Below, one piece after another: positions 1,486-25,459 of a stretch of 64,000 bases of DNA. The notes under the pieces are model-generated. The model was not told where the DNA came from. It saw only the letters and a program-made list of their open reading frames with translations, and ran no database searches. The stretch is from Patescibacteria group bacterium (lineage in GTDB: Bacteria; Patescibacteriota; Patescibacteriia; GWA2-46-9): the NCBI GenBank assembly GCA_041660005.1, contig JBAZXG010000003.1:835-64834 (forward strand). Direction: 5' to 3'. Position numbers and translations under genes: made by a program. Every line of letters begins with the position of its first letter. Position 1 is the first letter of the stretch.

Positions 1486-1917
1486 ATGTTTTTAGGCGAA
1501 TACCAGCACACCGTTGATGATAAGGGCCGCATAGCGGTTCCGGTTAAGTTTCGTTCATCTCTGCAAAAAGGAGCGGTTGTTACCCGTGGTATTGATCAAT
1601 GCCTTTTTGTTTATCCTATAAAGGAGTGGGAATCTCTTGCCGCAAAGCTCGCCAGCTTACCGGTTTCGCAGGCAAATACGCGCGCTTTTGCCCGCCTTAT
1701 GCTTGCTGGAGCCATGGAAGTAAAACCAGATCGGCAAGGGAGGGTCATTTTGCCTGACTATTTGCGTAAGTATGCTGGTTTACGTCACAAGGTCGTGTTG
1801 GCGGGCCTTTATAATCGTTTAGAGCTTTGGGACAGTGAGCGTTGGGAAAGTTATCGAAAAGGGACAGAGGAGAATAGTGCGGTCATCGCCGAGGCGATGC
1901 ATGACCTCGGCGTCTAG
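1486..1917 (+). CDS. mraZ: Transcriptional regulator MraZ
   Basis: 143 aa with two MraZ/SpoVT-AbrB halves. MFLGEYQHTVDDKGRIAVP and the second DRQGRVILP motif are diagnostic. First gene of the dcw cluster. Confidence 0.93.
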   Translation: MFLGEYQHTVDDKGRIAVPVKFRSSLQKGAVVTRGIDQCLFVYPIKEWESLAAKLASLPVSQANTRAFARLMLAGAMEVKPDRQGRVILPDYLRKYAGLRHKVVLAGLYNRLELWDSERWESYRKGTEENSAVIAEAMHDLGV

Positions 1918-1929
1918 TCAAAATATGCT

Positions 1930-2853
1930 ATGCAGCAACGACATGCCCCGGTTCTTTTGGAGGAGGTCATCCGTTATCTGCACCCGCTTCCGAATCAAAA
2001 TTTTGTCGATGCAACTTATGGCGGCGGGGGACATGCGACTGCCCTCCTTCAGGCAACGAAGCCAGCGGGGCAAATATTTACCTTTGATGTCGACCCCGGT
2101 GTTGCGGTACATGCCAAAAGTCTCGGTAACCGCGTTCATCACTTTACAGAAAACTTTTCTCATATAAATAAGGTATTGAGCGATGCGGCACCCACTATTA
2201 CAATTCACGGAATTCTCTTTGACCTCGGTTACTCATCGCTGCAGCTTGCAGACGAAACATTGGGGCTTTCATTTCAAACAAAACAGCCACTTGATATGCG
2301 ACTTAGTCGCACAGGAACTATGACCGCTGCTGTAATCGTCAATACCTGGCAAGAAGCAGAAATTGCCGACGCTCTGTATCAATTTGGTGAAGAGCGCGCC
2401 TCTCGTCGTATTGCCGCGGCTATTGTTCGTGCACGAAAAATTAAAACGATTACGACGACAGACGAACTCGCTGCAATTGTTGCCAAAGCGGCGGGGAAGC
2501 GATCACGGAGAATTCACCCTGCAACCCTGACGTTTCAAGCACTTCGCATTGCGGTGAATAACGAATTGGAAAATTTACGGGAGGGTATTGTTGGAGCAAA
2601 AGAAATGCTTACTCTTGGCGGGCGTATAGCTGTCATTTCTTTTCATTCGCTCGAGGATCGTATTGTCAAACAAATGTTTCGCGATTCTGAAAAATATTGC
2701 CACTGTGCTCCTGAGTCGTTGCAGTGTCGCTGTGATAAAACCAAAGTATGGAAAATCATAACGAAAAAACCCGTTACCCCGACGAGTAGTGAACTTTTAC
2801 AAAACCCCAGGTCGCGCAGCGCAAAGCTTCGTGTCTTAGAAAAATGTATATGA
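1930..2853 (+). CDS. rsmH: 16S rRNA (cytosine1402-N4)-methyltransferase RsmH
   Basis: 307 aa. HAPVLLEEV start, SAM motif DATYGGGGH, and the FHSLEDR motif. Sits immediately after mraZ. Confidence 0.93.
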   Translation: MQQRHAPVLLEEVIRYLHPLPNQNFVDATYGGGGHATALLQATKPAGQIFTFDVDPGVAVHAKSLGNRVHHFTENFSHINKVLSDAAPTITIHGILFDLGYSSLQLADETLGLSFQTKQPLDMRLSRTGTMTAAVIVNTWQEAEIADALYQFGEERASRRIAAAIVRARKIKTITTTDELAAIVAKAAGKRSRRIHPATLTFQALRIAVNNELENLREGIVGAKEMLTLGGRIAVISFHSLEDRIVKQMFRDSEKYCHCAPESLQCRCDKTKVWKIITKKPVTPTSSELLQNPRSRSAKLRVLEKCI

Positions 2854-3188
2854 TAACAAAAAGCCGCGGTCATCAACAAGCTCGTCCGTTTCAAGCAGGC
2901 AACACATCTCGATTTTTTCAAAAAAAAGCGTTCGTTATTATTACTTTAGCTGCTTTACTCTTTAGCTATGCAGGGTTTGCTAATAATGTAGCGACGCTCG
3001 GTTATAAGTTAGATGCGGCAGAGCAGGAGGTAGCAGTGTTGCAGAAAACGCAAACAAATTTAGAACTTGACATTGCAGCCGCTCGTTCACTACCTCGAGT
3101 TGAAGCGGTTGTTGGTTCGCTAGCGCTTGTTCCTGCATCTACGATTGAATACGCTGCGTCAACCGCGACCGCTGTCGCTATTCGATAA
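2844..3188 (+). CDS. ftsL: FtsL/DivIC-like cell division protein (single TM followed by a coiled coil)
   Basis: 114 aa with a TM helix (FVIITLAALLFSYAGF) then a heptad-like coiled coil. Lies between rsmH and ftsI, overlapping rsmH. Confidence 0.6.
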   Translation: MYMITKSRGHQQARPFQAGNTSRFFQKKAFVIITLAALLFSYAGFANNVATLGYKLDAAEQEVAVLQKTQTNLELDIAAARSLPRVEAVVGSLALVPASTIEYAASTATAVAIR

Positions 3189-3202
3189 TTTGGTATTCGG
3201 CA

Positions 3203-4963
3203 ATGGCTGCACGATTTGGCACGCCTCCGCCGGAAAAAAGGGGATCCAACTCTGTACGACTGCGTGTTGTTAAAACAGGAGTTTTATTGGTCGTTGCGGC
3301 CATTGTCTTACGGCTTTGGCAGCTCCAGGTTATTGATCATGCGGCGTACGCACAATTATCTCTTGGACAGCAAGCAACCTATGAATTGTTGACTCCGGAG
3401 CGGGGGAAGATTTTTGCAACTCAACGCGGTGCCAGTGGTGGTGAAGAGCTTGTGCCGCTCGCCGTTAATCGAGATGCCTATTTCATTTTTGCAAACCCTC
3501 GTCTGATCGAGGATCCAAAAGCAGCGGCTGAGGCGCTCGCCGGACCGCTCAAAAAAAGTGTCGATGAATTGTTACCGCTTCTTGATAAGCCGGATGATCC
3601 CTATGCGCCGCTTCTCCATCGAGCCGGCGCAGATGTAGCCGCAGCAATACGTGCGTTGAACTTACCCGGCATACAGATGATAACGGAGCGCGAACGTTTC
3701 TACCCGAACAATAATGTCGGCAGTCATGTGTTGGGCTTTGTGAGCTACAAAGACGATAAGCTAGTCGGACAGTATGGCATTGAAGGAACATTGAATAGCA
3801 AGCTCGCTGGAACTGCGGGAAGCATTCAGTCAATCCAAAGTCCGGGTGGCGTCTGGATTACACTCGGGGATCGCGACGTCAAAGAAGCCGTTGACGGAAG
3901 CAGTGTCGTACTCACAATTGATTGGACCGTGCAATTTTATGCCTGCCGTGCGCTCGATGCTTGGGTGGCGAAGCATGGCGCTACGGGTGGCAGCGTCATT
4001 GTCATGAACCCAGCAACCGGTGCAATTATTGCTATGTGCGGCTCGCCTGATTTTAATCCGAATGTTTTTAATGAAACAGAAAAAATTACCGCGTTTAATA
4101 ATCCGGCTCTCTTTTTGAATTACGAACCAGGATCAGTGATGAAGGGTCTCACCATGGCTGCGGCCATCGACCAGCAGCGTGTGACACCAACCTCCACGTA
4201 CGTTGATACGGGTTCGGTAACGTTTGGCAGAAGTGTCATAAAAAATTCTGATAATAAAGCACACGGCGTGCAAACAATGACGCAGGTGTTGGAAGAGTCT
4301 CTGAACACCGGGGCTATTTATGCCATGCGGCAAGTAGGTCTTTCAGTGTTCAAAAAATATCTTGAGGACTTTGGTCTTGGTTCTGTAACCGGCATTGATC
4401 TCGAAGGAGAGGCGGCTGGTAACCTAAAGAGTCTTTACCAAAATAATGAAATCTACGCAGCAACGGCTTCTTTTGGGCAGGGGGTCACCGCTACGCCATT
4501 GCAAATGGTTGCTGCCTATGCGGCTATAGCCAATAATGGGAAGTTAATGCAGCCGTACCTTGTGCAAGAAGTTAAGCATCCTGATGGCTCAGTAGAAACG
4601 CACAGCAGTAAAACAGTGCGTCAGGTCATCAACCAAAGGACCTCAGCACAAATTAGCGGTATGCTTGCTCGGGTGGTTACGAACGGTCATGGTAAAAAAG
4701 CTGCGGTTCCGGGCTATGTTATCGCAGGAAAAACGGGGACGGCGCAGATTCCAAGAAAGGACGGTAAGGGGTACGAGTCTGGTTCGACTATTGGTTCATT
4801 CATTGGCTATGGACCGGTAAGTAACCCCAAGTTTGCTATGCTGGTGCGTATTGATCGCCCGCAAGACGTTCAATTTGCTGAGTCTTCGGCGGCGCCGCTA
4901 TTTGGCGATTTGGCAAAATTTATACTACAGTATTATGAAGTTCCGTTTGATAATATAAAATAA
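3203..4963 (+). CDS. ftsI: Peptidoglycan D,D-transpeptidase (class B penicillin-binding protein, FtsI/PBP2)
   Basis: 586 aa with an N-terminal TM anchor, a PBP dimerisation domain, and the transpeptidase motifs SVMK (SxxK), SDN and KTGT. Confidence 0.9.
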   Translation: MAARFGTPPPEKRGSNSVRLRVVKTGVLLVVAAIVLRLWQLQVIDHAAYAQLSLGQQATYELLTPERGKIFATQRGASGGEELVPLAVNRDAYFIFANPRLIEDPKAAAEALAGPLKKSVDELLPLLDKPDDPYAPLLHRAGADVAAAIRALNLPGIQMITERERFYPNNNVGSHVLGFVSYKDDKLVGQYGIEGTLNSKLAGTAGSIQSIQSPGGVWITLGDRDVKEAVDGSSVVLTIDWTVQFYACRALDAWVAKHGATGGSVIVMNPATGAIIAMCGSPDFNPNVFNETEKITAFNNPALFLNYEPGSVMKGLTMAAAIDQQRVTPTSTYVDTGSVTFGRSVIKNSDNKAHGVQTMTQVLEESLNTGAIYAMRQVGLSVFKKYLEDFGLGSVTGIDLEGEAAGNLKSLYQNNEIYAATASFGQGVTATPLQMVAAYAAIANNGKLMQPYLVQEVKHPDGSVETHSSKTVRQVINQRTSAQISGMLARVVTNGHGKKAAVPGYVIAGKTGTAQIPRKDGKGYESGSTIGSFIGYGPVSNPKFAMLVRIDRPQDVQFAESSAAPLFGDLAKFILQYYEVPFDNIK

Positions 4964-4966
4964 TTT

Positions 4967-6268
4967 ATGCGCAAACTTTTTTACGCCTATTTGGCACTTC
5001 TGGCAAAATTATCGTTGCGCCGTTATAAGCCGCTCGTTATAGCAGTAACGGGTTCGGTGGGCAAAACAACGACCAAAGACATGATTGCTGCGGTGTTGCA
5101 GCAGCGGTACCGCGTGCGCGCGAGCGAGCGCAGTTATAATAACGAACTAGGTCTTCCGCTTACGATCCTTGGCGCGCCAAGTGCGAGTAGTTCTGCTCTG
5201 GGCTGGCTTGGCATTGTCGCAAAAGCAACAGTACAAGTTTTTGGCTACCAGAGGGGATATCCTCAAGTATTAGTGCTTGAGATGGGGGCTGATCATCCCG
5301 GAGACCTTGCTTACCTAACGTCAATAGCGAAACCCGACATTGCCGTGCTGACTGCCATAGCGCCGGTTCATTTAGAATTTTTTAAAAATATCGAAGAGGT
5401 CGCTCGTGAAAAAAGGAGCATTTTTAAGAGCTTGAAACCAAACGGCACAGCGATTTTGAACGAGGACGACAATGTTGTGTCCGCTACGAAAGTTGATGCA
5501 AATATGCGAACTCTTCGTTATGGAATGTCTGACAATGCTGGCATCAAAGGGAGCGACGTTAATATGCGGTTCTCACTTGGTCAAGGTTCGGAAGAAGCGA
5601 AGGGGGAAGTGAATTTTAAAATTTCACATGAGGGTTCCTCGGTTCCTGTTCACCTTGACGGAGTCTTGGGAGAGCCCGCGGTTTTGTCAGCGCTTGCCGC
5701 GTCATCTGTAGCTTTGAGTCTTGGTATGAACCTCGTGGATATTTCGGATGTGCTTTCCGCAACCTACAAGGGAACGCCTGGGCGTTTGCGATTGTTACCG
5801 GGAATAAAAGGAACGACTGTCATTGACGATTCTTATAACGCCTCTCCCGCTGCCATGATTGCCGCAATTAACGTGCTTGTCGCAGTGCCGAAAGACAAAA
5901 AGAATATGCGATGGGCAGTACTGGGCAGCATGGCTGAGTTGGGAACTGAAACGGCTCATGGGCATGAGCTAGTGGGAGCAGAGCTTGCGAAGCAGAGAAT
6001 AGACGGGTTAGTCACCGTCGGAGAAAGAGCGAGAATGATAGCGCAGACAGTTCGCGAAAAGGGAATGGATGCGAGAAACATTTTTTCGTTTGCAAAGGCG
6101 GAAGAGGCAGGCCATTTTTTGCAGGAACGGTTAGAGCCAGGGGATGTCGTGCTCATCAAGGGTTCGCAAGTCGTACGCATGGAGAAAGTTGTTAAAGAAA
6201 TTATGGCGGAGCCGAGTAGGGCTTCTGAGTTACTTGTTCGTCAAGGTCCCGAGTGGCAGGGTCGCTAA
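4967..6268 (+). CDS. murF: UDP-N-acetylmuramoyl-tripeptide--D-alanyl-D-alanine ligase MurF
   Basis: 433 aa. Mur-ligase P-loop AVTGSVGKTTTKDM, the DDSYNASP motif, and dcw-cluster context. Confidence 0.9.
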   Translation: MRKLFYAYLALLAKLSLRRYKPLVIAVTGSVGKTTTKDMIAAVLQQRYRVRASERSYNNELGLPLTILGAPSASSSALGWLGIVAKATVQVFGYQRGYPQVLVLEMGADHPGDLAYLTSIAKPDIAVLTAIAPVHLEFFKNIEEVAREKRSIFKSLKPNGTAILNEDDNVVSATKVDANMRTLRYGMSDNAGIKGSDVNMRFSLGQGSEEAKGEVNFKISHEGSSVPVHLDGVLGEPAVLSALAASSVALSLGMNLVDISDVLSATYKGTPGRLRLLPGIKGTTVIDDSYNASPAAMIAAINVLVAVPKDKKNMRWAVLGSMAELGTETAHGHELVGAELAKQRIDGLVTVGERARMIAQTVREKGMDARNIFSFAKAEEAGHFLQERLEPGDVVLIKGSQVVRMEKVVKEIMAEPSRASELLVRQGPEWQGR

Positions 6269-6402
6269 ACGTTGACGAGATAGTAAAAAAACACTACCGT
6301 TCCTACTTCGCTCTCGCTGTGCCCGAGCTACGAAGGACAAGTATTTCTGTTTATAACAGAGTTTGCCCTGCGTAGCTCTGGCGAAGCCAGAGCAGAGCAT
6401 GA

Positions 6403-6477
6403 GCCGCGTTCGTCTAATGGTTAGGACACATGGTTCTCATCCATGAAATACGGGTTCGATTCCCGTACGCGGTACCA
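6403..6477 (+). tRNA. tRNA-Glu (anticodon CTC), CCA encoded
   Basis: Cloverleaf by hand. Acceptor GCCGCGT/ACGCGGT (G1-U72 wobble). D-arm GTCT-AATGGTTA-GGAC. Anticodon stem CATGG/CCATG with loop TTCTCAT. T-arm ACGGG-TTCGATT-CCCGT. Discriminator A followed by CCA. Confidence 0.85.
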
Positions 6478-10126: not shown

Positions 10127-10648
10127 ATGGTAAACAGTCGTCTTTCCTTTCGTGACTTGGGACAGCCCGAGTTGGAGTTGGTGATCGGGGAGCACCACGG
10201 TGTGTTCGAGCTCCAGGCAGAACACAAAGGTCTGCGCTTCGTGGTAGACCTCACGAAGCGTGGAAGTCGGTGGCCCCACGCAGGGGACGTGTGGAAACTG
10301 CAGCCACTCTATTCTCCGCATGGTTCACGCGTCGTCTTCTGTGAACCACGCGAACTCATAAGGGAGCGAGTTCGTCCGCCTTACTTCGACGTTGCGCGTT
10401 TGGGCGCGCCTACCGTGGAGCTTCAGGAGACAATACACAAGAGGAAGCCTCAGCTCCATGCTCCGTACCAGAGACTCTTCAAGCTTGTGGTCGATCTGGA
10501 ATGGTGGGACGGAGAAACACCACAGGCGGGGCAAATCTGGATTCTCAAACCGCTGAGAACTCCGGATGGGTATCTCATTTTTTCCGAACCTGTTCGGCAC
10601 GTTGATCCTGACACTGTCGACAGCTTCGCCGAACGCGACAGGTGGTAG
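10127..10648 (+). CDS. Hypothetical protein with internal tandem duplication, encoded in a GC-rich segment
   Basis: 173 aa. Two homologous halves: LRFVVDLTKRGSRWPHAGDVWKLQPLYSPHGSRVVFCEP and FKLVVDLEWWDGETPQAGQIWILKPLRTPDGYLIFSEP. GC content is visibly higher than in flanking genes. No family recognised. Confidence 0.5.
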   Translation: MVNSRLSFRDLGQPELELVIGEHHGVFELQAEHKGLRFVVDLTKRGSRWPHAGDVWKLQPLYSPHGSRVVFCEPRELIRERVRPPYFDVARLGAPTVELQETIHKRKPQLHAPYQRLFKLVVDLEWWDGETPQAGQIWILKPLRTPDGYLIFSEPVRHVDPDTVDSFAERDRW

Positions 10649-10750
10649 CAGTTACGCCGCTCGAATAGGCTCGTGCCCTGTAAGTGAGTAGTCCTTCCAG
10701 GATGTATTCTGCGAGCTCAATCTAGAGCTCCTTACATCCACGTTTCTTTC

Positions 10751-10795
10751 GGCGCCGCCCAGGTTCTCCACCCGGGCGGCGTCTTCACTTTTGTT
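10751..10795 (+). terminator. Putative rho-independent terminator (GC stem cgccgccc/gggcggcg, 13-nt loop, T-rich tail)
   Basis: 8-9 bp GC stem at 10753-10781 followed by tcttcacttttgttatt, about 100 nt after the stop of 10127..10648. Confidence 0.4.
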
Positions 10796-11313
10796 ATTCG
10801 TCCTTGGACGCGTGATTAAGATTTAGTATCATAGTTCAAACTATGGTACTGACAGTTATTCTGTAAGAACTCAAGTAACTTCTCGGCCTATATGGGCGAG
10901 CGGAAATCAAAAGTCAAAAGGCAAAACTGCAAATCAAAAATTAAAAACTGTGCACAAACACCGCAGACTTCGCTTTCACTACCTACGCCGATCCTAAGGG
11001 ATTTGCATTGTAATCTTTCAAACCCCCTCATTGATCGGGAGAATGAATGCGCTCTCGGCTAAACCCCTGGTGTCCGGTCGTGGCAATGAGGGCGAAAGCA
11101 GGACGAATAAATTCAAGAGCATGTTTGAGCCGAATTATTAAAGTGAGGCGAGTTTGCTCTTGCTCGTCCTGCTGAGGAAGGAATGCCCGACCGGAGCACC
11201 CGGGGTGTCGTTCTTTTGGTGACTTTTCTTAGACAAGTAAGAAAAGTCACAACCTACAGCCCCGTCAGACGGGGCGAGGTTTATTGGGCCTAGGGTTTTA
11301 ATCCTTACTTACC

Positions 11314-11342
11314 TTGCTACGTAACATATTACGTAGCATAAT
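11314..11342 (+). promoter_or_regulatory. Promoter TTGCTA -17 nt- CATAAT with embedded 24-bp palindromic operator (tgctacgtaaca|tattacgtagca, 11315-11338)
   Basis: -35 and -10 hexamers with a 17-nt spacer, about 28 nt upstream of the nuclease start codon. A near-perfect inverted repeat (1 mismatch in 24) spans the -35, the spacer and the first base of the -10. Confidence 0.45.
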
Positions 11343-11369
11343 GGTTCTACAAATCATTTAAACAAAACC

Positions 11370-12122
11370 ATGTCCGATTATTACAAAGCAAACAGAACGA
11401 GAAATATTTACGATCCTAAGAGTAAGGAGCCGTTTAAATTATCTCGTTCAAAAATCGAAAATTTTTCATCGTGTAAGAAGTGTTTTTACCTTGACCGCCG
11501 ACTGGGTGTGGGACAGCCGTCGGGCTACCCATTAAATTTAAATATCGCGGTCGATACACTTCTCAAAAAAGAGTTCGACATTCACCGCGCAAAACAAAAA
11601 ACGCATCCGCTCATGAAAGCGTATGGGCTGAAAGCCGTACCCTTTGCTCACAAGATGATTAATGAGTGGAGAGAGAATTTTAAGGGTGTGCAGTTTCATC
11701 ATGAGCCGACGAATTTCATTATTTCGGGAGCGGTCGACGATCTCTGGCAAGATGAAAACGGTGAAATTATTGTGGTCGACTATAAGGCCACCAGTAAAAG
11801 TTCTCAGGTTAACCTCGACGCTGCTTGGCAAGACGGGTACAAAAGGCAAATGGAAATATATCAATGGCTACTTCGGAATAATGGTTTGAAAGTGTCGGAC
11901 ACGGGCTATTTTGTGTACTGCAACGGAAAGACAGATGCAGAAGCTTTTGACGCAAAGCTAGAGTTTGACATTGATTTATTGCCCTACACCGGCGACGACT
12001 CTTGGGTTGAAACGCGACTGCATGAAATTAAAAAATGCCTTGACGGAAACATGCCAGACGCAAACCCCAACTGCGATTATTGTAATTATAGAAAAGCAGT
12101 AAGTGAGGTTGATAATAAATAG
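11370..12122 (+). CDS. PD-(D/E)xK superfamily nuclease, Cas4/RecB-like, with N- and C-terminal CxxC pairs (putative Fe-S cluster)
   Basis: 250 aa. Catalytic core ...DDLWQDENGEIIVVDYKAT... (D...E-x-K arrangement). Four cysteines arranged as C-KK-C near the N-terminus and C-DY-C near the C-terminus, as in Cas4/AddB-type nucleases. No CRISPR array or other cas genes in the window. Confidence 0.65.
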   Translation: MSDYYKANRTRNIYDPKSKEPFKLSRSKIENFSSCKKCFYLDRRLGVGQPSGYPLNLNIAVDTLLKKEFDIHRAKQKTHPLMKAYGLKAVPFAHKMINEWRENFKGVQFHHEPTNFIISGAVDDLWQDENGEIIVVDYKATSKSSQVNLDAAWQDGYKRQMEIYQWLLRNNGLKVSDTGYFVYCNGKTDAEAFDAKLEFDIDLLPYTGDDSWVETRLHEIKKCLDGNMPDANPNCDYCNYRKAVSEVDNK

Positions 12123-12169
12123 ATTGACCGACTGAAGAACTAAGTTATAATAATAACATCCTTACAAAC

Positions 12170-12197
12170 TTGAGAATGTTGGTATGAGGTGTATACT
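12170..12197 (+). promoter_or_regulatory. Promoter copy 1 (TTGAGA -16- TATACT) within a 45-bp element repeated at 12486-12532. The predicted TSS coincides with the ATG at 12204, implying a leaderless mRNA.
   Basis: Sequence ataacatCcttacaaacttgagaatgttggtatgagGtGtat occurs twice, at 12150-12195 and 12486-12530, with three substitutions. The -35/-10 hexamers lie inside the repeat. Confidence 0.4.
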
Positions 12198-12491: not shown

Positions 12492-12504
12492 CATACTTAC
12501 AAAC

Positions 12505-12532
12505 TTGAGAATGTTGGTATGAGATATATTGA
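12505..12532 (+). promoter_or_regulatory. Promoter copy 2 (TTGAGA -16- TATTGA / TATATT) upstream of the HExxH membrane protein
   Basis: Second copy of the 45-bp repeat. It overlaps the stop codon of the ArsR-like gene. Confidence 0.35.
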
Positions 12533-12535
12533 AGC

Positions 12536-13324
12536 TTGAAATTGAGTACCTGTATGTTTTTACCAAGCTTTATTTTCTTGATCGTTATCGTTGTGTTGCT
12601 TGTACTCTCGCGTCTTATCAGCCGGACGCTTTTTAAACTTTTGGGTGAAGGATGGTATATAGTACTTCTCTGGCCCGGCGTCATTGTTCATGAGGGGTCG
12701 CATTTTCTCGGCGCACTGCTTACCTTCACTCCTGTCCGAGGTTTTTCGCTATTGCCCGAAACTGGAGGGTCAGGGTCTCGCGTGCTCGGAGTTGTGCGTC
12801 ACGATCGTCCGAAAAACCCTTTTGCGTCCGTGATAATTTCAGGATTTCCATTAATTGGCGGAACTGTTGCCATTTGGTTATTAACTGTCTTTTTACTTCC
12901 CGGGCTATCATCGTCAATATTGACATCGGAATGGCAGGGTGGAGGGTATAGTAATCTTTTGAATTCTTTTCGTTTTTTAATAAAACGTGGATCGGAAGTT
13001 ATTTCTTTCGGGAGTTGGCAAACTTGGCTATTCCTTTATTTAAGTTTCACCATTAGTGCCCACTTGGCTCCTTCAAGCCATGATCTGAAGTACGTAGCAA
13101 AAGGTCTTATTGGTCTTGTTGTAATACTCGGTGCTCTCTACTGGCTCGCCAGTTTTATAAAAACATCAATGACCCACAATGTTCTCGTATGGCTCGTCGC
13201 GCACATAAATGAGGGTATCTCTAAAATTTTATTTGCTTTTCTTTACCTGGCTTTCATTTCAATCGTCGTCACTGTTGTGTCGCTACTTCTGCTGTCTATT
13301 AAAAAACGTCTTCGTCGTTATTAA
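12536..13324 (+). CDS. Integral membrane protein with HExxH zinc-metalloprotease motif (M50/M56/DUF3267-like zincin)
   Basis: 262 aa, about 6 TM segments. HEGSH motif at the end of TM2 (VIVHEGSHFLGALL). TTG start at 12536, alternative ATG at 12554. Confidence 0.55.
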   Translation: MKLSTCMFLPSFIFLIVIVVLLVLSRLISRTLFKLLGEGWYIVLLWPGVIVHEGSHFLGALLTFTPVRGFSLLPETGGSGSRVLGVVRHDRPKNPFASVIISGFPLIGGTVAIWLLTVFLLPGLSSSILTSEWQGGGYSNLLNSFRFLIKRGSEVISFGSWQTWLFLYLSFTISAHLAPSSHDLKYVAKGLIGLVVILGALYWLASFIKTSMTHNVLVWLVAHINEGISKILFAFLYLAFISIVVTVVSLLLLSIKKRLRRY

Positions 13325-15656: not shown

Positions 15657-16376
15657 ATGAGCCAAAAGCTCTCAGAAAGGCAGGCAGCCATATTGGGTTG
15701 TCTTATTCGTGCCCATATAGAAACAGCCGCTCCAGTCGGTTCGCTGACTATCGTTGAACGAACGCGGATTGGTGCCAGTTCCGCCACCATCAGAAATGAA
15801 ATGGCGAACCTTGAGCAAATGGGTTATTTGAGAAGCCCCCACACTTCGGCTGGGCGCATTCCAACAGAGCAAGGGTACCGTTACTACCTTGAGTATTTGG
15901 TTACGCCGGCACTCATGCCAGATATTGAAGAGCGACGTATGCGTTCCATTCAACGGTCGTATGAAGACTTTGAAGAGCGTTTTCGTCAGCTGGCAAAAGC
16001 TGTTGCGGAGTTTTCAGCCGAGGGTGTCTTTCTTGCCTTTGGCAAGAATAATCTCTACTACACTGGTCTTTCGAATTTGTTTGCGCAGCCGGAATTCAGA
16101 GAGCAGCGTCAGCTCGTTGCCATGGGGCAGGTCATTGACCACCTAGACGAAGCGGTCTCAGAAATATTCGCCAGCGAGAGTGGAAATGATGTTACCGTTT
16201 TAGTGGGAAGTGATAATCCGTTTGGTAGAGACTGTAGTGTGATTCTGTTACGCTATGGTTCGAGTGGCAGCAACACCGAAAAAGGATTGTTCGGCATTCT
16301 CGGGCCAACGAGAATGGATTACGACAGGAACATTACGCGCGTTACGCGCGTTCGAGATTGTGTAAAATTAGAATAA
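15657..16376 (+). CDS. hrcA: Heat-inducible transcription repressor HrcA (short form)
   Basis: 239 aa. N-terminal wHTH LSERQAAILGCLIRAHIETAAPVGS. First gene after CIRCE, followed by grpE. Confidence 0.85.
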   Translation: MSQKLSERQAAILGCLIRAHIETAAPVGSLTIVERTRIGASSATIRNEMANLEQMGYLRSPHTSAGRIPTEQGYRYYLEYLVTPALMPDIEERRMRSIQRSYEDFEERFRQLAKAVAEFSAEGVFLAFGKNNLYYTGLSNLFAQPEFREQRQLVAMGQVIDHLDEAVSEIFASESGNDVTVLVGSDNPFGRDCSVILLRYGSSGSNTEKGLFGILGPTRMDYDRNITRVTRVRDCVKLE

Positions 16377-16382
16377 TCTTTT

Positions 16383-16895
16383 ATGACAGACGGTTCAGAG
16401 CAGCAAACAAAAAAACAGTCGCTAGAAAAGCGCATTGAGGAACTCGAGGCAACCCTTAAGGAACATACGGCTGGTTGGCAGCGGGCACGCGCCGATTATC
16501 AAAACCTTAAGCGCGAGTCCGAAGAAAAACAGCATTCCTACGCTGATTTGACGAGACGCCGTATGTTGCAGGATTTGTTGCCAATTTATGATTTATTGAA
16601 GCGGGCAACAGAGACCACACCGGACGCTGAGCACGTCACATCTTGGATTAGCGGAGTTCAGCAAATTGTCACAACCTGGAAAAATTTATTAACGCGATGG
16701 CAGGTAACAACCATTGACACTGAAAACAAATCGTTTGATCCGTCACTGCACGAAGCAGTTGGCACTGACGGTAATATGCAGGTTGGTGCAATTGTAAAAG
16801 AGTTAGAGGGTGGTTATATGGTGAATGGTGTTCTCGTCCGTCCGGCAAAGGTTATCGTTGGTACAAAGGAAGAAGGCAAAAACAAAGCGAGCTAA
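16383..16895 (+). CDS. grpE: Nucleotide exchange factor GrpE
   Basis: 170 aa. Coiled-coil N-terminus and a GrpE C-terminal beta-domain (NGVLVRPAKV). Position between hrcA and dnaK. Confidence 0.85.
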   Translation: MTDGSEQQTKKQSLEKRIEELEATLKEHTAGWQRARADYQNLKRESEEKQHSYADLTRRRMLQDLLPIYDLLKRATETTPDAEHVTSWISGVQQIVTTWKNLLTRWQVTTIDTENKSFDPSLHEAVGTDGNMQVGAIVKELEGGYMVNGVLVRPAKVIVGTKEEGKNKAS

Positions 16896-16919
16896 TTTCA
16901 TTTATTAACCTCTATTATT

Positions 16920-17342
16920 ATGTCTCGACTAATTCGTTGGAGTCCCGTGGTTCCCGATTTCTTCGAGGACACAGAAAAGTTTCTCGAAGAATATGGACTA
17001 TCTGGTGCAGCCGTGCTACCGGTTGATATTTATCAAACCGAGGATAGCGTCATTGTCGAAACGCCACTACCCGGCATAGATCCCAAAAACATTGAAGTTT
17101 CTGTTGATCATAATGTTTTGACCATACGCGGGAAAGTTGAGCATAAAACTGAGATTGACGAGAAGAACTATTATCGAAAAGAAGTGCGTAGTAACTCGTA
17201 TCACCGTGCAGTTGCCTTGCCTGTTCATGTTGACCAGGCGAAAGCTGAAGCAGACTACAAGAATGGTATGCTCATTGTCCGGTTGCCGAAAGCGAGCGAA
17301 CCGAACACTAAGACAATTCAAGTTAAGCGTTCGACTGCCTAA
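16920..17342 (+). CDS. Hsp20/alpha-crystallin family small heat-shock protein
   Basis: 140 aa. Alpha-crystallin domain (VDIYQTEDSVIVETPLPGIDPKNIEVSVDHNVLTIRG...AEADYKNGMLIVRLPK). Confidence 0.85.
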   Translation: MSRLIRWSPVVPDFFEDTEKFLEEYGLSGAAVLPVDIYQTEDSVIVETPLPGIDPKNIEVSVDHNVLTIRGKVEHKTEIDEKNYYRKEVRSNSYHRAVALPVHVDQAKAEADYKNGMLIVRLPKASEPNTKTIQVKRSTA

Positions 17343-17350
17343 TCTTAATT

Positions 17351-17412
17351 CCTCTCCCTATTCAGGGAGGGGGATCCGGGTGAGCCTAGAGTACGACTCA
17401 GGGTTCACCCGG
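17351..17412 (+). terminator. Two tandem intergenic hairpins between hsp20 and dnaK, possibly an attenuator or processing site. No T-tract follows on the + strand.
   Basis: Hairpin cctctccc-tattca-gggagggg at 17351-17372 and ccgggtga...tcacccgg at 17376-17412. Confidence 0.3.
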
Positions 17413-17458
17413 GTCACAAAAAAGTTAACTATCTTTAAAGCAAATTAATCTAAAATCT

Positions 17459-19378
17459 ATGGCAAAAATAATTGGAATCGACCTTGGTACGACAAATTCG
17501 TGTGTAGCAGTTATGGAGGGAGGAGAGCCGAAGGTAATAGAGAACCGCGAAGGAAACCGGACGACGCCATCGGTTGTGGCGATGTCGAAAAATGGTGACC
17601 GCCTCGTGGGTCTTGTTGCCAAACGGCAAGCAGTAACGAATCCCGAGAATACGATTTTTTCAGTGAAGCGTCTCATAGGTCGACGGTTTGAGGAGGACGA
17701 AGTGCAGCGCGACATTAAGCTGATGCCGTACCGAATTTCTAAATCAGGCGACGGCATTAAAGTTGCTATGAGCGGCAAGGATTATACCCCTCAAGAAATT
17801 TCTGCCATGGTATTGCAGCAGCTCAAAGCTGATGCAGAAGAGCGTCTTGGGGAAAAAGTAACAGAAGCCGTCATTACGGTTCCTGCATATTTTAACGATG
17901 CCCAACGTCAGGCGACCAAAGATGCAGGTGAGATTGCAGGACTAAAAGTTCGCCGCATCATCAATGAGCCAACGGCTGCAGCACTTGCCTATGGGCTCGA
18001 CAAGAAAAAAGACCAAAAAATTGTTGTCTACGATCTGGGGGGCGGCACATTTGACGTTTCAGTGCTTGAGGTGGGAGACGACACCGTAGAAGTCAAGGCG
18101 ACCAATGGTGACACCCATCTTGGTGGCGACGATTTTGATCAGGCCATCATTGAATGGACGATTACCGAGTTCAAGAAGGACCAGGGCATTGATCTTTCAA
18201 AAGATCGTCTCGCCTTGCAGCGCATTAAAGAAGCAGCTGAAAAAGCAAAAATTGAATTGACCTCAGCTCCAGAAACTGAAATTAGCCAGCCGTTTATAAC
18301 TTCGGACGCTGCTGGACCAAAACATCTTAACATCAAGTTGTCTCGCGCTAAGCTCGAAGACTTGGTAGGGAAGCTCGTAGAAAAAACCCTTGAACCCTGT
18401 AAAAAAGCGCTGGCTGATGCAAAACTAAAGACAACGGATATTGATGAAATCGTCATGGTCGGCGGTATGACGCGTATGCCACTCGTGCAGCAAACGGTTG
18501 AGAAGTTTTTTGGGAAGAAACTGCACCTCGGTGTTAACCCTGACGAAGTTGTGGCTATTGGCGCCGCGGTACAGGCAGGCGTATTGCAGGGTGAAATTAA
18601 AGATGTGCTGCTTCTTGACGTAACGCCGCTCTCGTTTGGCATTGAAACACTTGGTGGCGTCATGACAAAATTGATTGAGCGCAATACCACCATTCCAACT
18701 TCAAAATCACAAGTTTTCTCAACGGCAGCTGACAGCCAAACTTCGGTAGAAGTGCACGTTTTGCAAGGAGAGCGTGAAATGGCTGCAGATAACAAGTCTC
18801 TTGGGCGCTTCATTCTTTCTGGTATCCCGGCTGCCCCACGCGGTGTTCCTCAAGTTGAAGTAAGCTTTGATATTGATGCTAACGGCATTCTGAACGTGAA
18901 AGCCGTAGATAAAGCAACCAACAAAGAGCAAACCATTACCATTACTGCTTCATCCGGGCTCTCTAAGGATGAAATCGAGAAAATGAAAAAAGATGCTGAA
19001 CTGCACGCCGATGAAGACAAAAAGCGTCGGGAACTCATTGAACTTAAAAATAGTGCAGACGGTCTTGTGTATTCAACAGAGAAAACCGTCAAAGAGGCTG
19101 GAGACAAGGTGGACGCTGAGGTAAAGAAGTCTGTCGAGGAAAAGGTAGAAGCATTGAAAAAGGTTAAAGAGAGCGAAGACATCGAGGCAATCAAAAAAGC
19201 GTTTGATGAACTTGGTACGGTTATTCAGAAAGTTGGTGCAGATCTCTACAAAGCGACGCAAAGCAATGAGGGTGCGCCAGCAGAAAAAAAGGAAGAGGGT
19301 CCTGTTGATGCGCATTATGAAGAGAAAAAAGATGATGAGCAGCCAAAGTCAACAGAAGAAAAATCAAATGATCTGTAG
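17459..19378 (+). CDS. dnaK: Molecular chaperone DnaK (Hsp70)
   Basis: 639 aa. [24 protein letters not shown], and an EEVD-like acidic C-terminus. Confidence 0.97.
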
Positions 19379-19430
19379 TTGTTGGTGTAGTGGCGCCATT
19401 CGTACCTAAATTTATTCGACGAATTCTTAA

Positions 19431-19742
19431 TTGGTAATCCGTAATCATAACCATATGGCCGATCAAAAAAACATGCAGATTAAGGCGAGCGACGAAGCGC
19501 TCAAAGGAACGTATGCTAACCTCATGCAGGTTAGTCATCTGAAAGAGGAGTTCATTTTGGATTTTATGAATGTATATCCCTTTCAGGGAATCGGAACCCT
19601 AAACGCGCGGGTTATAGTGAGCCCTTCTCACTATAAACGCATGGTTGCCGCCATGCAGGAAAACCTTAAGCGTTACGAGGAAACACACGGCACAATCGCC
19701 GCAGGTGATGCACCGAGTGCGGAAGTTGGTTTTCAGGCGTAG
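19431..19742 (+). CDS. Hypothetical small protein (103 aa) inserted between dnaK and dnaJ
   Basis: Clean ORF. Start possibly at the internal Met (MADQKN...). No motif recognised. A GC hairpin at 19761-19782 (agcgccgcc-gtta-ggcggcgct) follows it. Confidence 0.5.
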   Translation: MVIRNHNHMADQKNMQIKASDEALKGTYANLMQVSHLKEEFILDFMNVYPFQGIGTLNARVIVSPSHYKRMVAAMQENLKRYEETHGTIAAGDAPSAEVGFQA

Positions 19743-19798
19743 AGACTTTTCTTTCTCGGAAGCGCCGCCGTTAGGCGGCGCTCCTGCTAACATTCACC

Positions 19799-20905
19799 AT
19801 GGCTAAAGATTATTATAGTATTTTAGGAGTCAACAAAAGCGCTTCTGCTGACGAGATCAAGAAAGCGTATCGTAAGTTGGCGCACAAACATCATCCTGAT
19901 AAAGCCGTGGAAGGAAGCAGCGAACACAAGGAAAGCGAAAAAAAGTTTAAAGAGTTGAACGAGGCCTATCAGGTGCTTTCGGACGCAAATAAGCGTCAGC
20001 AGTATGATCAGTTTGGTACTACGTTTGACCAAGCGTCTCCGGGTGGCGGTGGTTACGGTGGTGGATTTGGCGGTTTCAGTCAGGGTGGAAATATTAATAT
20101 AGATTTTGACGATCTTGAGGATCTCTTTGGTGGAGTTTTTCGTGGTTTCGGTGGAGGTTCGCGTAGAGCAAGTCGGCAGACCAAAGGAGCAGATATTCAG
20201 ATGGCGGAAACGATCAGCTTTAAAGAGGCAGCCTTTGGGGTCAAACGTGAGTTACGATTGTACAAAACAGTGCCCTGCCCAGGATGTAAAGGAAGCGGTG
20301 CTGAACAGGGAAGCAAGGTCGTGACCTGTAAGACCTGCCAAGGTCAGGGTCAGGTAGCTGACGTACAAAATACTATTTTTGGAAGTTTCCAAACCGTGCG
20401 CGCCTGCTCTGCATGTGGCGGTATGGGGAGCATTCCGGAAAAGATTTGCTCAACTTGTCGCGGCAGGCGCATCACCAAAGAAACAGTTACCCTGACCGTT
20501 GATATACCAGCTGGTATTAGTGACGGAGAGACCTTGCGTTTGACCAGTCAAGGCGAAGCTGGGGACCGCGGATTGGCTGGGGACCTGTACATAACCGTAC
20601 GCGTTGAAGCGGACCGACTGTTTGAACGGCATGGCAACGATGTTGTGACGGTTTTACCGATATCGTTTAGCGAGGCAGCACTCGGTATTGTGCGTGATGT
20701 GGAGACTATTGATGGAGCGGTAGCCGTGACCATACCGCCAGGTACGCAAAGTGGAGCTGTGCTGCGCTTAACGCGTAAAGGAATACCGCACTTACATGGC
20801 AAAGGCAGGGGCGACCATCTGGTAACCATTAAGGTGAAAACACCTGTAAAATTAAGTAAGTCTCAGCGTAAACTTTTTGAAGAATTGGCTGAACTTGATT
20901 CTTAA
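19799..20905 (+). CDS. dnaJ: Molecular chaperone DnaJ (Hsp40)
   Basis: 368 aa. J-domain with the HPD motif (KHHPDK), a G/F-rich region, and four CxxCxGxG zinc-finger repeats. Confidence 0.95.
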
Positions 20906-22439: not shown

Positions 22440-22922
22440 GTGTATATGCATAGCGCAACTGTAGAATCAAAAAAGCAACAAGAGGGGCGCGAAGAAGCGT
22501 CGCAAGCGAAGCACGAGCAGGAGGCAGTGCACGAGAAGCCACAGGCCGATTCGCCTGCGGCTCCTTCATCGATGCAAACGATTACGCCCGTAATTTTTTC
22601 TTCTAGTAGCACGCCAGAAGTTGCCTCGTCTACAAAAAGTCAATCATTGCAGCAGATCGAAGATATTTTATCGGAAGACTTAGGGGAAGTATATGCGTCT
22701 CTTTCGCCGAAGGAGCAGTTCATTATTAAAACAAAAGGAGAACAAACAGCGGAGAAAATTCGCGAGGTATTGCGTCAGGCAACACTACAATTTCGTACGC
22801 TTTTTAAACTCATTTTATCGTGGTTGCGCGTCATACCAGGAGTTGCTCGTCCGTTTGTTGAACAAGAGGCAAAAATTAAAGCGGATAAACTGCTCCGCCT
22901 GAGGAGCAAAAAAGATTTGTGA
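22440..22922 (+). CDS. Hypothetical protein (160 aa), Ser/Thr/Pro-rich N-terminus with a basic helical C-terminus
   Basis: ORF immediately upstream of the VirB4/VirD4-like ATPase and overlapping it. No TM segment and no recognised motif. Confidence 0.45.
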   Translation: MYMHSATVESKKQQEGREEASQAKHEQEAVHEKPQADSPAAPSSMQTITPVIFSSSSTPEVASSTKSQSLQQIEDILSEDLGEVYASLSPKEQFIIKTKGEQTAEKIREVLRQATLQFRTLFKLILSWLRVIPGVARPFVEQEAKIKADKLLRLRSKKDL

Positions 22923-25459
22923 ACATTATACCCGTTACACCAGAGACAAGTTTTATATCTCCACTTCTCTATCCATGGCTCGTTGCGTTAGGTGTTGCTG
23001 GTGTCGTTTTTCTTTTGATACTCCGCGCTATTTACCGCCGTACCTACCAGCATGGTGTTGCATTGAATAAAGTAGTGCTTTTGGTCACTGTTCCAAAGTA
23101 CGAATCCAAGAATAAGGAGGAGTCGAAAGGTATTGAACAACTGCGCGAACAAATTGCTCTGGCTGAGTCGCTTTTTTCCAGCATTGGCGGTTTACGCGCC
23201 GAGCGCAGTTTTGGCGCGTACCTTTGGGGCAGGAGAGACCATTTAGCGCTTGAAATCGTTGCCACAAAAGGAGAGATTCTTTTTTATGTGGTGGTCCCGC
23301 GTCAGATGCAGCGTTTTATTGAGCAGCACATTCATGCTCAGTATCCCGCAGCACACGTCGAGGAATCAGCTGACTATAATATATTTTTACCGCACGGAGT
23401 GTCACGGGGTGCAGTTCTCCACTTTAGTCGGTCATATATTTTTCCTATTCGTACCTATAAAGAGATTGACACTGATCCCTTGCTTGCCGTTACCAATGCG
23501 CTTAGTCGACTCGGTACCAATGGGGCCGCGGTGCAGATTGTGATTCGTTCAGCAAAACGTGGGTGGCATCGTTATGGGCAGCGCACTGCGTCATTAATGC
23601 ATCAAGGTAAGAGTTTTAAAGAGGCCTATTTGGCGGGTCATGGCAGCTGGTATGTTCGTATGGCCGTGCACATCATGCGTGCCTTGTACCCCGCGCCCAA
23701 AAAGGACAACCGAGACGACGATATATACTCACAGAAACAGCACTCGCGTCATCAATTGAGCGCCCTTGAGCAAGAAATGGCAAAGCGCGTTGAGGAGAAA
23801 ACAAGTAAGGCCGGGCTTGATGCAAATATTCGCGTGGTCGTTTCAACGCCGCGAGCAGTGGACAGCGACCGAGCGCTCGACAACATTTTAAATGCCTTTA
23901 ATCAGTTTGGCATGTATCAGTACGGGAATCGTTTCGTACCCAGTCGGCCAAGAAGTCAACAAACGCTTCTGCGTCGATTTATTTACCGTGATTTTGTGAA
24001 ACGAAATGCCGTGCTGTTGAATGCCGAAGAATTGGCGAGCATATTCCATTTTCCGCTTATTGGAACAGAGACGCCGAACATCCGGTGGCTGCGGTCAAAG
24101 AAGGCCGCCGCGCCAACGGTGCTACCTGATGAAGGTGTTGTCCTCGGCGTGAATAAGTATCGCGGCGAGGAGCGCCTCATTCGTTTTGCCACGGCGGATC
24201 GCCGTCGTCATTGCTACATCATTGGAACAACGGGTTCTGGGAAATCAGTGCTCATGAGCGAAATGGTTAAGCAGGACATTGCGGCAGGGCGTGGAGTTTG
24301 CGTTATTGACCCTCACGGATCAACTGTCGAAGATATTCTTGAATGTATTCCTTCATCGCGTGCGAATGATGTTATTTATTTTGACCCCGCTGACGTCGAG
24401 CGCCCCATGGGGCTTAACATGCTTGACGCAACGACGCCGGCAGAAATGGATTTTGCTACGCAAGAAATGATTGCCATTTTTTACAAGCTGGTAACTGATC
24501 CGTCGATGATTGGTCCGATGTTTGAACACAATATGCGGAACGCCATGCTGACTTTAATGAGCGATCGAGAGCAGCCGGGTACACTCGTGGAAATACCAAG
24601 AATATTTACCGACACGGAATTTCAGCGGTTTAAAGTAAAAAAAGTTAACGATCCGATAGTACGGGCCTTTTGGGAGCAGGAAATGGCTAAAACTTCAGAT
24701 TTTCACAAGTCTGAAATGCTTGGGTATTTGATTTCCAAAGTAGGACGTTTCATTGAAAACAGCATGATGCGCAATATTATTGGACAATCGAAGTCCGCCT
24801 TTAATTTGCGTCAGGTCATGGACGAAGGGAAAATTCTCTTGGTCAATTTATCAAAGGGCAAAATTGGCGATATCAACGCAAACTTGCTTGGGCTCATACT
24901 CGTGTCAAAGATTCAGATGGCAGCGCTTTCTCGTGCCGATTCTCGCGAGGACAGCTATAAGGATTTTTATTTGTATATTGATGAGTTCCAGAATTTTATT
25001 ACTGATTCAATTGCTACGATTCTTTCTGAGGCGCGTAAGTATAAGTTGAACTTGATCATGGCACATCAGTACATTGGTCAGCTGGTGCAAGGTCAAGATA
25101 CCAAGATTCGCGATGCGGTTTTAGGAAACATCGGCTCAATCATCGCTTTTCGTGTTGGCGTGGAAGACACGGAGATGCTGGCTAAAGAATTTGAACCAGT
25201 CTTTACGGAGTACGATCTCATCAACATTGATCGGTTTCACGCTTATGTGCGGCTGCTCATTAACAACAGTGTCACGAGGCCCTTCGATATAGACACGTTC
25301 CCGCCGACCGTTGGCGACCCGGCGCGTGCAGCTATTTTAAAGCAGGCATCACGAATGCGTTACGGGCGCGATCGTAGAGAAGTTGAAGCTGAAATTATAG
25401 AACGCGGTAGACTTTCTTCACTGGGGGCGCCGACCGTTGATCGAGCCGTGTTACTCTAG
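22919..25459 (+). CDS. Type IV secretion-family ATPase (VirB4/TrbE- or VirD4/TraD-like; FtsK/HerA superfamily) with N-terminal TM anchor
   Basis: 846 aa. A TM helix near the N-terminus. Walker A GTTGSGKS at about residue 435, followed by VIDPHGS. Walker B LYIDEFQNF. EARKYKLNLIMAHQ matches the E-[AG]-R-K-x-G...Q motif of T4SS ATPases. Confidence 0.65.
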   Translation: MNIIPVTPETSFISPLLYPWLVALGVAGVVFLLILRAIYRRTYQHGVALNKVVLLVTVPKYESKNKEESKGIEQLREQIALAESLFSSIGGLRAERSFGAYLWGRRDHLALEIVATKGEILFYVVVPRQMQRFIEQHIHAQYPAAHVEESADYNIFLPHGVSRGAVLHFSRSYIFPIRTYKEIDTDPLLAVTNALSRLGTNGAAVQIVIRSAKRGWHRYGQRTASLMHQGKSFKEAYLAGHGSWYVRMAVHIMRALYPAPKKDNRDDDIYSQKQHSRHQLSALEQEMAKRVEEKTSKAGLDANIRVVVSTPRAVDSDRALDNILNAFNQFGMYQYGNRFVPSRPRSQQTLLRRFIYRDFVKRNAVLLNAEELASIFHFPLIGTETPNIRWLRSKKAAAPTVLPDEGVVLGVNKYRGEERLIRFATADRRRHCYIIGTTGSGKSVLMSEMVKQDIAAGRGVCVIDPHGSTVEDILECIPSSRANDVIYFDPADVERPMGLNMLDATTPAEMDFATQEMIAIFYKLVTDPSMIGPMFEHNMRNAMLTLMSDREQPGTLVEIPRIFTDTEFQRFKVKKVNDPIVRAFWEQEMAKTSDFHKSEMLGYLISKVGRFIENSMMRNIIGQSKSAFNLRQVMDEGKILLVNLSKGKIGDINANLLGLILVSKIQMAALSRADSREDSYKDFYLYIDEFQNFITDSIATILSEARKYKLNLIMAHQYIGQLVQGQDTKIRDAVLGNIGSIIAFRVGVEDTEMLAKEFEPVFTEYDLINIDRFHAYVRLLINNSVTRPFDIDTFPPTVGDPARAAILKQASRMRYGRDRREVEAEIIERGRLSSLGAPTVDRAVLL

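Follow-up and report, generated by a model that had tools for sequence, protein, structure and literature searches.

What controls a stand-alone nuclease gene whose promoter is overlaid by a palindrome, and does such an arrangement mark a defence system? The question is raised by a 64,000-nucleotide stretch of contig JBAZXG010000003.1 from a Patescibacteria group bacterium (the whole stretch analysed, here called the window), in which a nuclease gene of the RecB/Cas4 family follows a predicted promoter that is covered by an inverted repeat. An earlier note, made from the letters of this DNA alone, had proposed the adjacent ArsR-type protein as the repressor and a defence or toxin module as the setting. 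We hold, with somewhat more confidence than doubt, that repression by a small AbrB-type regulator is the likeliest mechanism and, together with a housekeeping role for the nuclease, would best explain the locus overall; the evidence for this comes largely from the places at which the two halves of the palindrome recur in other genomes.

The promoter proposed earlier was recovered by a consensus scan, which predicts the hexamers TTGCTA (11314–11319) and CATAAT (11337–11342), with the start codon of the nuclease gene 27 nt further downstream. Inside this promoter, at positions 11315–11338, lies the inverted repeat TGCTACGTAA-CATA-TTACGTAGCA, whose 10-nt arms are perfect (10+4+10) and which, taken as a 24-mer, is self-complementary at 22 of its 24 bases, so that the description of a near-perfect palindrome spanning the promoter holds. 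It is unique in the window, where shuffled sequences lead one to expect 0 copies. Palindromy alone is weak evidence, because the window contains about six distinct perfect inverted repeats (arms of at least 10 nt and spacers of at most 6 nt; eight raw matches, some of them overlapping) as against 0.45 in shuffled sequences. What argues against chance is that the same sequence recurs in other genomes, and this recurrence also supports the earlier view of the palindrome as a putative protein-binding element.

A metagenome scan in which the four central bases of the palindrome were left free returned 19 contigs, 14 of which carry the identical perfect 24-mer TGCTACGTAACATGTTACGTAGCA, several with a third unit in register; these 14 contigs range from 33 to 51% GC and lack the nuclease gene. 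The element can be broken down into 12-bp units, TGYTACGTARCA, each of which is a near or perfect palindrome, and among the 29 distinct arrays that the 1.12 Mb of fetched DNA contains, 27 consist of two or three units in exact 12-bp register. The window has one such pair (Table 1), in which the second unit has an A at position 2 where the consensus has an almost invariant G, leaving the whole site 1 mismatch in 24 bases from perfect. Other sites (fetched loci are given by their L numbers) precede or abut genes for a YraN/UPF0102 nuclease (L101), HIT (L088) and NUDIX (L111 and L095) hydrolases, glycosyltransferases (L099 and L102) and a DKNYY protein (L118), and one in L094 lies by a P-type ATPase-like open reading frame (ORF) identified by eye only. 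A phage origin was rejected, as viral contigs gave no match, and a literature search for the motif strings returned unrelated primer sequences only. Resemblances to parS, Zur-box and LacI-type sites were considered and rejected, as their spacing and core differ and as the unit here is a 12-bp element repeated in tandem register.

In L100 and L103 a triplet of units ends 11–17 nt before a 52-residue ORF that encodes an AbrB/SpoVT-type domain (PF04014), and in L095 a unit pair lies approx. 60 nt before a homologue of the same gene; most such proteins pass the PF04014 cut-off. Homologues of the protein number 215, with identities of 69% or more among the 120 listed. Further lineages were fetched by way of the AbrB-type protein itself and not by way of the motif, and in all, the first loci included, at least two units were found within 130 nt upstream of the gene in seven of eight independent lineages (L100, L103/L107–110, L090/L095, L111–113, L114, L118/119 and L120/121). 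The pairs stand at −34/−22 in L107–110 and L111–113, at −41/−29 in L118/119, at −72/−60 in L114 and at −125/−113 in L120/121; the sole lineage of the eight with no units upstream is L115–117, in which the AbrB-type gene lies inside an operon. The closest parallel to the window is the AbrB-type promoter of L107 (cTTGCTACGTAACATGTTACGTAGCATAAT / cTTGCTACGTAACATGTTACGTAGCATAATagggctATG), which matches window positions 11314–11342 at 28 of 29 bases, and the same promoter cassette stands in front of the AbrB-type gene throughout L107–L110. As the genes downstream of the AbrB-type gene differ in every lineage, we regard its product as a solo regulator and not as the antitoxin of a fixed pair. With this association in hand, the idea of a LexA/SOS box was set aside; there is no lexA gene in the window, and papers that cite the relevant work gave no motif. 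On L095, a 484-kb Patescibacteria contig, the AbrB-type gene has three unit pairs around it within 4 kb (247–270, 2397–2418 and 3866–3889), one of them beside a NUDIX gene and another approx. 145 nt upstream of an ORF judged by eye to be ScpB-like.

On this basis, the window nuclease promoter would be a copy of a regulated cassette in which two adjacent 12-bp units (TGYTACGTARCA) span the region from −35 to −10. One dimer of the small AbrB-type protein would bind each unit, two side-by-side dimers over this region would occlude RNA polymerase, and the nuclease would thus be repressed as a member of the regulon of the AbrB-type protein. Like the AbrB/SpoVT/MazE-type proteins (B. subtilis AbrB and the MazE-type antitoxins), the proposed regulator is small and passes PF04014, and its presumed binding sites lie over its own promoter and are repeated there, which would suit dimers or tetramers; unlike them, it is only 52 residues long and lacks both a C-terminal domain and a toxin partner. 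The sites of B. subtilis AbrB are loosely defined, whereas the putative operator described in the present study is a sharply defined 12-bp palindrome. On balance, we favour a widely conserved Patescibacteria regulon, in which this 52-residue solo protein would recognize TGYTACGTARCA pairs and repress its own gene together with a shifting set of targets; the proposed targets are the Cas4-like nuclease, the YraN-type nuclease, the NUDIX and HIT hydrolases and the glycosyltransferases. To our knowledge, the control of transcription in Patescibacteria is almost uncharted, as these organisms cannot be grown alone. Such a regulon does not appear in the literature that we searched and, if true, it would be one of the first transcription circuits to be defined for uncultured bacteria with such small genomes.

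Several observations weigh against this reading and bear on two alternatives. The assignment to the AbrB-type protein assumes autoregulation, and another factor could bind the units. The units would then be a genuine operator family of that different factor, with the AbrB-type gene merely its most conserved target; the evidence is one of co-location only, in L103/L107 the same intergenic region also lies upstream of a divergently transcribed Xre-type helix–turn–helix gene, and the L115–117 lineage does without the units altogether. We consider this unlikely, however, as nothing but the AbrB-type gene is common to the seven lineages, its flanking genes differing in each, and as proteins of the AbrB/MazE/SpoVT type are as a rule negatively autoregulated; tandem pairs of a 12-bp palindromic unit, moreover, are what swapped-hairpin-domain dimers would fit. 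It is also unusual for a promoter operator that in L093 (2601–2622) and L097 (2951–2972) the perfect palindrome falls within long ORFs. These ORFs encode a Mur-ligase-like protein of 472 residues in L093 and an aldolase-like protein of 287 residues in L097, and the palindrome reads ...LRNMLRS... in them.

The other alternative is that the palindrome at this locus is a decaying relic, or a mere promoter core, which regulates nothing, the nuclease being expressed constitutively. Absence of the palindrome from orthologous promoters had been named in the earlier note as a finding that would count against it, and the palindrome is indeed absent upstream of 80 orthologues, even when six mismatches are allowed; these upstream regions share no sequence with the window, and single units occur in them at or below chance. 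Any regulation by this operator would consequently be lineage-specific, and the other orthologues manage without the site. The closest relatives of the nuclease, in L081–L086, are 91% identical with it. The sister locus L081 can be aligned with the window from the −35 hexamer onward only, and both hexamers are identical; in L081 unit 2 is perfect, with the right unit identical, and unit 1 has three mismatches to the consensus. Read from the alignment, 4 of 24 operator bases differ between window and sister as against 7 of 34 in the adjoining leader, so that the operator is no better conserved than its leader; with one damaged unit in each of the two lineages, it may be a weakened relic. Finally, tblastn and a family hidden Markov model run on six-frame ORFs found no AbrB-type gene in the sister loci, in the window or in the 5 kb that follow it, the contig extension of approx. 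5 kb holding neither a regulator gene nor an operator site. Against a relic stand the one perfect unit and both hexamers that each lineage retains, although the sequence upstream of −35 has diverged beyond alignment, and the window site, which lies a single mismatch from the perfect 24-mer. We therefore regard a relic as possible but doubtful, if somewhat less so than a different binding factor, and retain repression by the AbrB-type protein as the preferred explanation.

The locus around the gene differs from that of its sister. An mraZ-rsmH-ftsL-PBP-murE cluster (PBP, penicillin-binding protein) plus a tRNA precedes the nuclease in both the window (1486–6477) and L081 (607–6000), and the window has an extra block of approx. 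4.7 kb between tRNA-Glu and the nuclease, which contains a TrmB-type regulator, an NMT1-type ABC transporter, a 173-residue ORF and a non-coding stretch. This non-coding stretch, which measures approx. 665 bp up to the nuclease promoter (10649–11313) and 720 bp by another count, contains a perfect hairpin with a 13-bp stem (11219–11250) as well as the terminator-like hairpin (11259–11275) listed in Table 1. The latter would probably shield the nuclease promoter from transcription that arrives from upstream. Rfam gave nothing at gathering scores near the locus, with chance-level matches (E>1) only in 10600–11420, and the stretch has no similarity to the sister lineage or to other fetched loci except for a fragment from the same organism (L087).

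The product of the gene had been described earlier as a stand-alone Cas4-like PD-(D/E)xK nuclease, a description that its family, motifs, cysteines and fold bear out, although its scores fall under the Cas4 cut-offs. The ORF opens with an ATG and encodes 250 residues, and homologues support this start, with M1 invariant among them and S2 almost so. In a Pfam profile search the protein matches PF12705 (PDDEXK_1) over the whole length of the profile with 56.7 bits against a cut-off of 22 (4e-15), residues 26–242 aligning with profile positions 4–244 of 247. The Cas4 models, which the earlier note had suggested searching alongside PDDEXK_1, are not reached at their curated cut-offs: PF01930 scores 22.6 against 22.7, 0.1 bit short, and TIGR00372 scores 33.6 against 65. 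The catalytic motifs GAVDD (D123/D124), VVDYK (D137-Y-K139) and Q160xxxY164 are all invariant in 39 homologues; VVDYK is thus present as noted earlier, but the core that it forms reads D-x-K and not E-x-K. The same homologues have invariant cysteines at positions 35, 38, 223, 235 and 238, and C184 is nearly invariant. Both of the C-x2-C pairs that had been taken for the Cas4/AddB Fe-S pattern exist, but with the extra invariant C223 the layout is C35-x2-C38 ... C223-x11-C235-x2-C238, which does not follow the canonical C...C-x2-C-x5-C.

An AlphaFold model of the nuclease (pLDDT 81, pTM 0.80) was compared with known structures by Foldseek. The top matches, with a probability of 1.0, were Cas4 (7mi4, 4ic1 and 8d3l), the nuclease domains of AdnA/AdnB, RecE, MGME1 and EXO5, followed by ACE1 with a probability of 0.9–0.96, and the TM-scores were modest, 0.36–0.50 for the matches with a probability of 1.0 and about 0.3–0.5 overall; PDB searches with the single sequence and with a profile detected no relative. 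The nuclease appears to be a catalytically intact member of the RecB/Cas4 family, but its Cas4 scores, cysteine layout and genomic setting place it outside Cas4 proper. It is predicted to depend on Mg2+/Mn2+, and a cysteine-bound metal cluster would tie its N- and C-terminal parts together. A further reservation about our reading belongs here: the cysteine pattern is unlike that of proven Fe-S Cas4 proteins, so that the metal could be zinc.

Motif III of the form 'hhDYK(S/T)' is typical of RecB. With the nuclease domains of AddB, AdnA-AdnB and RecB the window protein shares this motif, a fold match to AdnA/AdnB and an AddB-like cysteine cluster; unlike them, it is no fragment and has no helicase gene attached. 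The CRISPR Cas4 proteins (SSO0001, 4ic1; type I-C Cas4, 7mi4 and 8d3l) are its best structural matches when the model is used as the query, with the D...DxK and QxxxY motifs in common and an N-terminal cysteine next to the C-terminal cysteines, whereas the window nuclease is accompanied by no cas1, cas2 or array, scores below the curated values, is approx. 50 residues longer and reaches TM-scores of only 0.38–0.45. In its setting it resembles the solo-Cas4/PF12705-type proteins from the candidate phyla radiation (CPR) and DPANN, which likewise stand alone outside CRISPR-cas loci in small-genome hosts, have a RecB-type core and conserved cysteines and are conserved across their host group with no known function; it differs in scoring on PF12705 and not on PF01930/TIGR00372, and in its cysteines, C-x2-C ... 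C-x11-C-x2-C.

The same family is found very widely. A word-index search gave at least 8000 word-sharing homologues, the best 120 of which are 69–91% identical, cover 97–100% of the protein, are almost all of 248–255 residues and come from sources named Yanofskybacteria, Paceibacterota and Parcubacteria. A genome scan found the gene in at least 573 GTDB species genomes from many Patescibacteria classes, the Nomura-, Uhr-, Falkow-, Azam-, Taylor-, Kuenen-, Berkel-, Doudna- and Andersenbacteria among them, with 62–84% identity in the best 80 loci, and an exhaustive search gave 300 clusters at 50% identity (E≤1e-30). Neighbour clustering of these 80 loci found no family in more than six of them, and no recurrent partner or immunity gene; the commonest neighbours were a family-4-type uracil-DNA glycosylase and a DHH/DHHA1 phosphoesterase. 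The earlier note had also considered that the protein might be a housekeeping RecB/AddB fragment with conserved synteny, and the homologues turned out to be complete proteins of 248–255 residues with no attached helicase gene and no conserved synteny. The glycosylase lies within approx. 2 kb of the nuclease in six of the 80 loci (L031, L062, L064, L070, L071 and L075), and this proximity alone hints, faintly, at a connection with DNA repair. In two metagenome-assembled genomes, WY3.bin152 (L039/L062) and binchicken_co79_39 (L045/L068), the nuclease gene is present twice within the one bin, on separate contigs, which reflects either paralogy or mixed bins.

These data bear directly on the proposal that a tightly repressed orphan nuclease is typical of a defence or toxin module, of which it would be the effector that must stay tightly off. 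PADLOC gave matches to Cas4 models at 4e-11, and enzymes of the Cas4 family can act in immunity, as does ACE1 with Argonaute (PMC12094033); in Methanosarcina mazei, overexpression of its solo-Cas4 is reported to have slowed growth (PMC12501428). Yet the PADLOC matches are limited to generic Cas4 adaptation models, none of the 80 loci reveals a recurrent partner or immunity gene, conservation across Patescibacteria is at the level of housekeeping genes, and the surrounding genes in the window are of a housekeeping kind, encoding an ABC transporter, regulators and membrane proteins along with the hrcA-grpE-dnaK-dnaJ cluster. The absence of a nearby CRISPR array stated in the earlier note was confirmed, with neither tandem nor CRISPR-like direct repeats in the 64 kb, and no cas genes were seen among the scanned window proteins, which do not include every ORF. 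We therefore consider a defence effector very improbable, and this locus is probably no defence module. Because it is conserved widely across Patescibacteria without conserved neighbours, the family looks like a conserved housekeeping gene of the CPR 'solo-Cas4' type and not like a defence or toxin gene, and the nuclease would most likely serve ordinary DNA end-processing or repair rather than immunity, a role suggested by its family membership.

The nuclease by itself is an ordinary finding, since stand-alone Cas4-like CPR genes were reported in 2017, as vertically inherited and with function unknown (Hudaiberdiev et al. 2017, PMC5704561), and their function is still unknown. The only biochemically studied solo-Cas4 that we found is that of M. 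mazei, reported to be a metal-dependent DNase with a [4Fe-4S] cluster that is induced in stationary phase (PMC12501428). With at least 62% identity across classes in the best 80 loci, the present family is among the most conserved Patescibacteria proteins of unknown role, and it is a good target for biochemistry because it is highly conserved and has no solved structure and no characterized enzyme.

There remains the ArsR/SmtB-like protein, which according to the earlier proposal would bind the 24-bp palindrome as a dimer and shut off the nuclease promoter. In favour of this, its gene lies only 81 bp from the nuclease gene on the same strand, and in L120 (Parcubacteria GW2011_GWC1_45_14) a homologue with 54% identity directly follows an AbrB-type gene that has units upstream, so that the two families do co-occur at times. 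The protein belongs to a family of approx. 2000 homologues, the 120 listed being 74–100% identical. However, the palindrome is missing from the promoter region of the ArsR-like gene itself, which instead has a predicted promoter, TTGAGA-16-TATACT by consensus scan, and a 22-bp motif, CTTACAAACTTGAGAATGTTGG, in two identical copies that bracket the gene (Table 1) where 0 would be expected by chance. In L122, L124, L125 and L126 this motif, TTGAGAATGT, recurs upstream of both the ArsR-like gene and the gene that follows it, and L120 has it in a variant palindromic form. What the ArsR-like genes of these loci and of the window carry, upstream of themselves and of the following gene, is thus a motif (CATCCTTACAAACTTGAGAATGTTGG) other than the palindrome. 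TACGTA units were absent around the ArsR-like genes of L122, L124 and L126, loci fetched by way of ArsR-like homologues, L125 having one isolated unit with one mismatch 1.5 kb away and L120 having units only upstream of the adjacent AbrB-type gene. In addition, an ArsR homologue is missing from the surroundings of the other 19 palindrome sites and from those of the nuclease in 86 related loci (in the 80 related loci as well as in the closest relative, where a methyltransferase follows the nuclease).

Because the ArsR-like loci share their own 22-bp motif and not the palindrome, this protein most likely has its own operator, through which it would control itself and the downstream membrane-protein genes and not the nuclease. 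The ArsR neighbour is probably not the nuclease repressor, and we would give its proposed role scarcely any credence. It looks like one half of a second conserved small regulon, composed of the ArsR-like gene and its 22-bp motif. Like ArsR/SmtB proteins with 12-2-12 operators, it combines a weakly matching winged helix with a conserved motif in its own promoter; unlike them, all of its matches fall below the family cut-offs, and the motif is not the nuclease palindrome. Two pairs of motif and regulator have thus emerged unplanned, the AbrB-type protein with TGYTACGTARCA and the ArsR-like protein with CTTACAAACTTGAGAATGTTGG, and these are the part most worth following. Elsewhere, the gene after the ArsR-like gene encodes TspO, an SNase-like nuclease, a DUF2779 protein or a membrane protein. 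In L120 it encodes a DUF2779 protein, and the ArsR-like gene is flanked there by two copies of a palindrome of approx. 30 bp, ACATTCTCACATTCTTGAGAATGTGAGAATGT (10305–10335 and 10685–10715). The DUF2779 protein was considered as a relative of the nuclease and rejected, there being no detectable similarity.

Table 1. Coordinates of the nuclease gene, its control region and the adjacent ArsR-like gene, numbered from the first letter of the window
Feature	Positions	Strand	Basis or remark
Terminator-like GC hairpin, then T-rich tail	11259–11275	+	approx. 40 nt upstream of the −35 hexamer
Predicted sigma-70-type promoter, TTGCTA (−35), 17 nt, CATAAT (−10)	11314–11342	+	consensus scan, 9/12
Putative operator unit 1, TGCTACGTAACA	11315–11326		unit comparison; perfect match to TGYTACGTARCA; overlaps −35
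Putative operator unit 2, TATTACGTAGCA	11327–11338		one mismatch to TGYTACGTARCA; overlaps −10
Stand-alone RecB/Cas4-family PD-(D/E)XK nuclease gene	11370–12122	+	ORF, PF12705, invariant residues, AlphaFold/Foldseek
22-bp motif CTTACAAACTTGAGAATGTTGG, copy 1	12161–12182	+	upstream of ArsR-like gene; contains the −35 hexamer TTGAGA
ArsR/SmtB-like winged-helix regulator, 95 residues	12204–12491	+	NF033788 1.3e-6, HTH_5/MarR, all below cut-off
22-bp motif CTTACAAACTTGAGAATGTTGG, copy 2	12496–12517	+	just upstream of membrane-protein gene 12536–13324

Several other features of the window were recorded. Two proteins that do not lie near the nuclease gave PADLOC matches, namely a 225-residue protein (57–734), which matches the candidate defence family PDC-M05A (3e-21), and an 846-residue protein (22919–25459), which matches mad8/HerA-type ATPase models (3e-17). 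Of two overlapping ORFs (28118–29182 and 28836–29996), the second matches a model of type II nicking restriction endonucleases (6e-25), and the two may be a frameshifted or fused restriction-modification gene. A 2318-residue ORF (44074–51030) had no match in PADLOC, the sole library with which it was scanned. The hrcA-grpE-hsp20-dnaK-dnaJ heat-shock cluster occupies 15657–20905, HrcA being identified by Pfam and the others by eye, and a class A RNase P RNA (181 bits) lies at 59379–59751.

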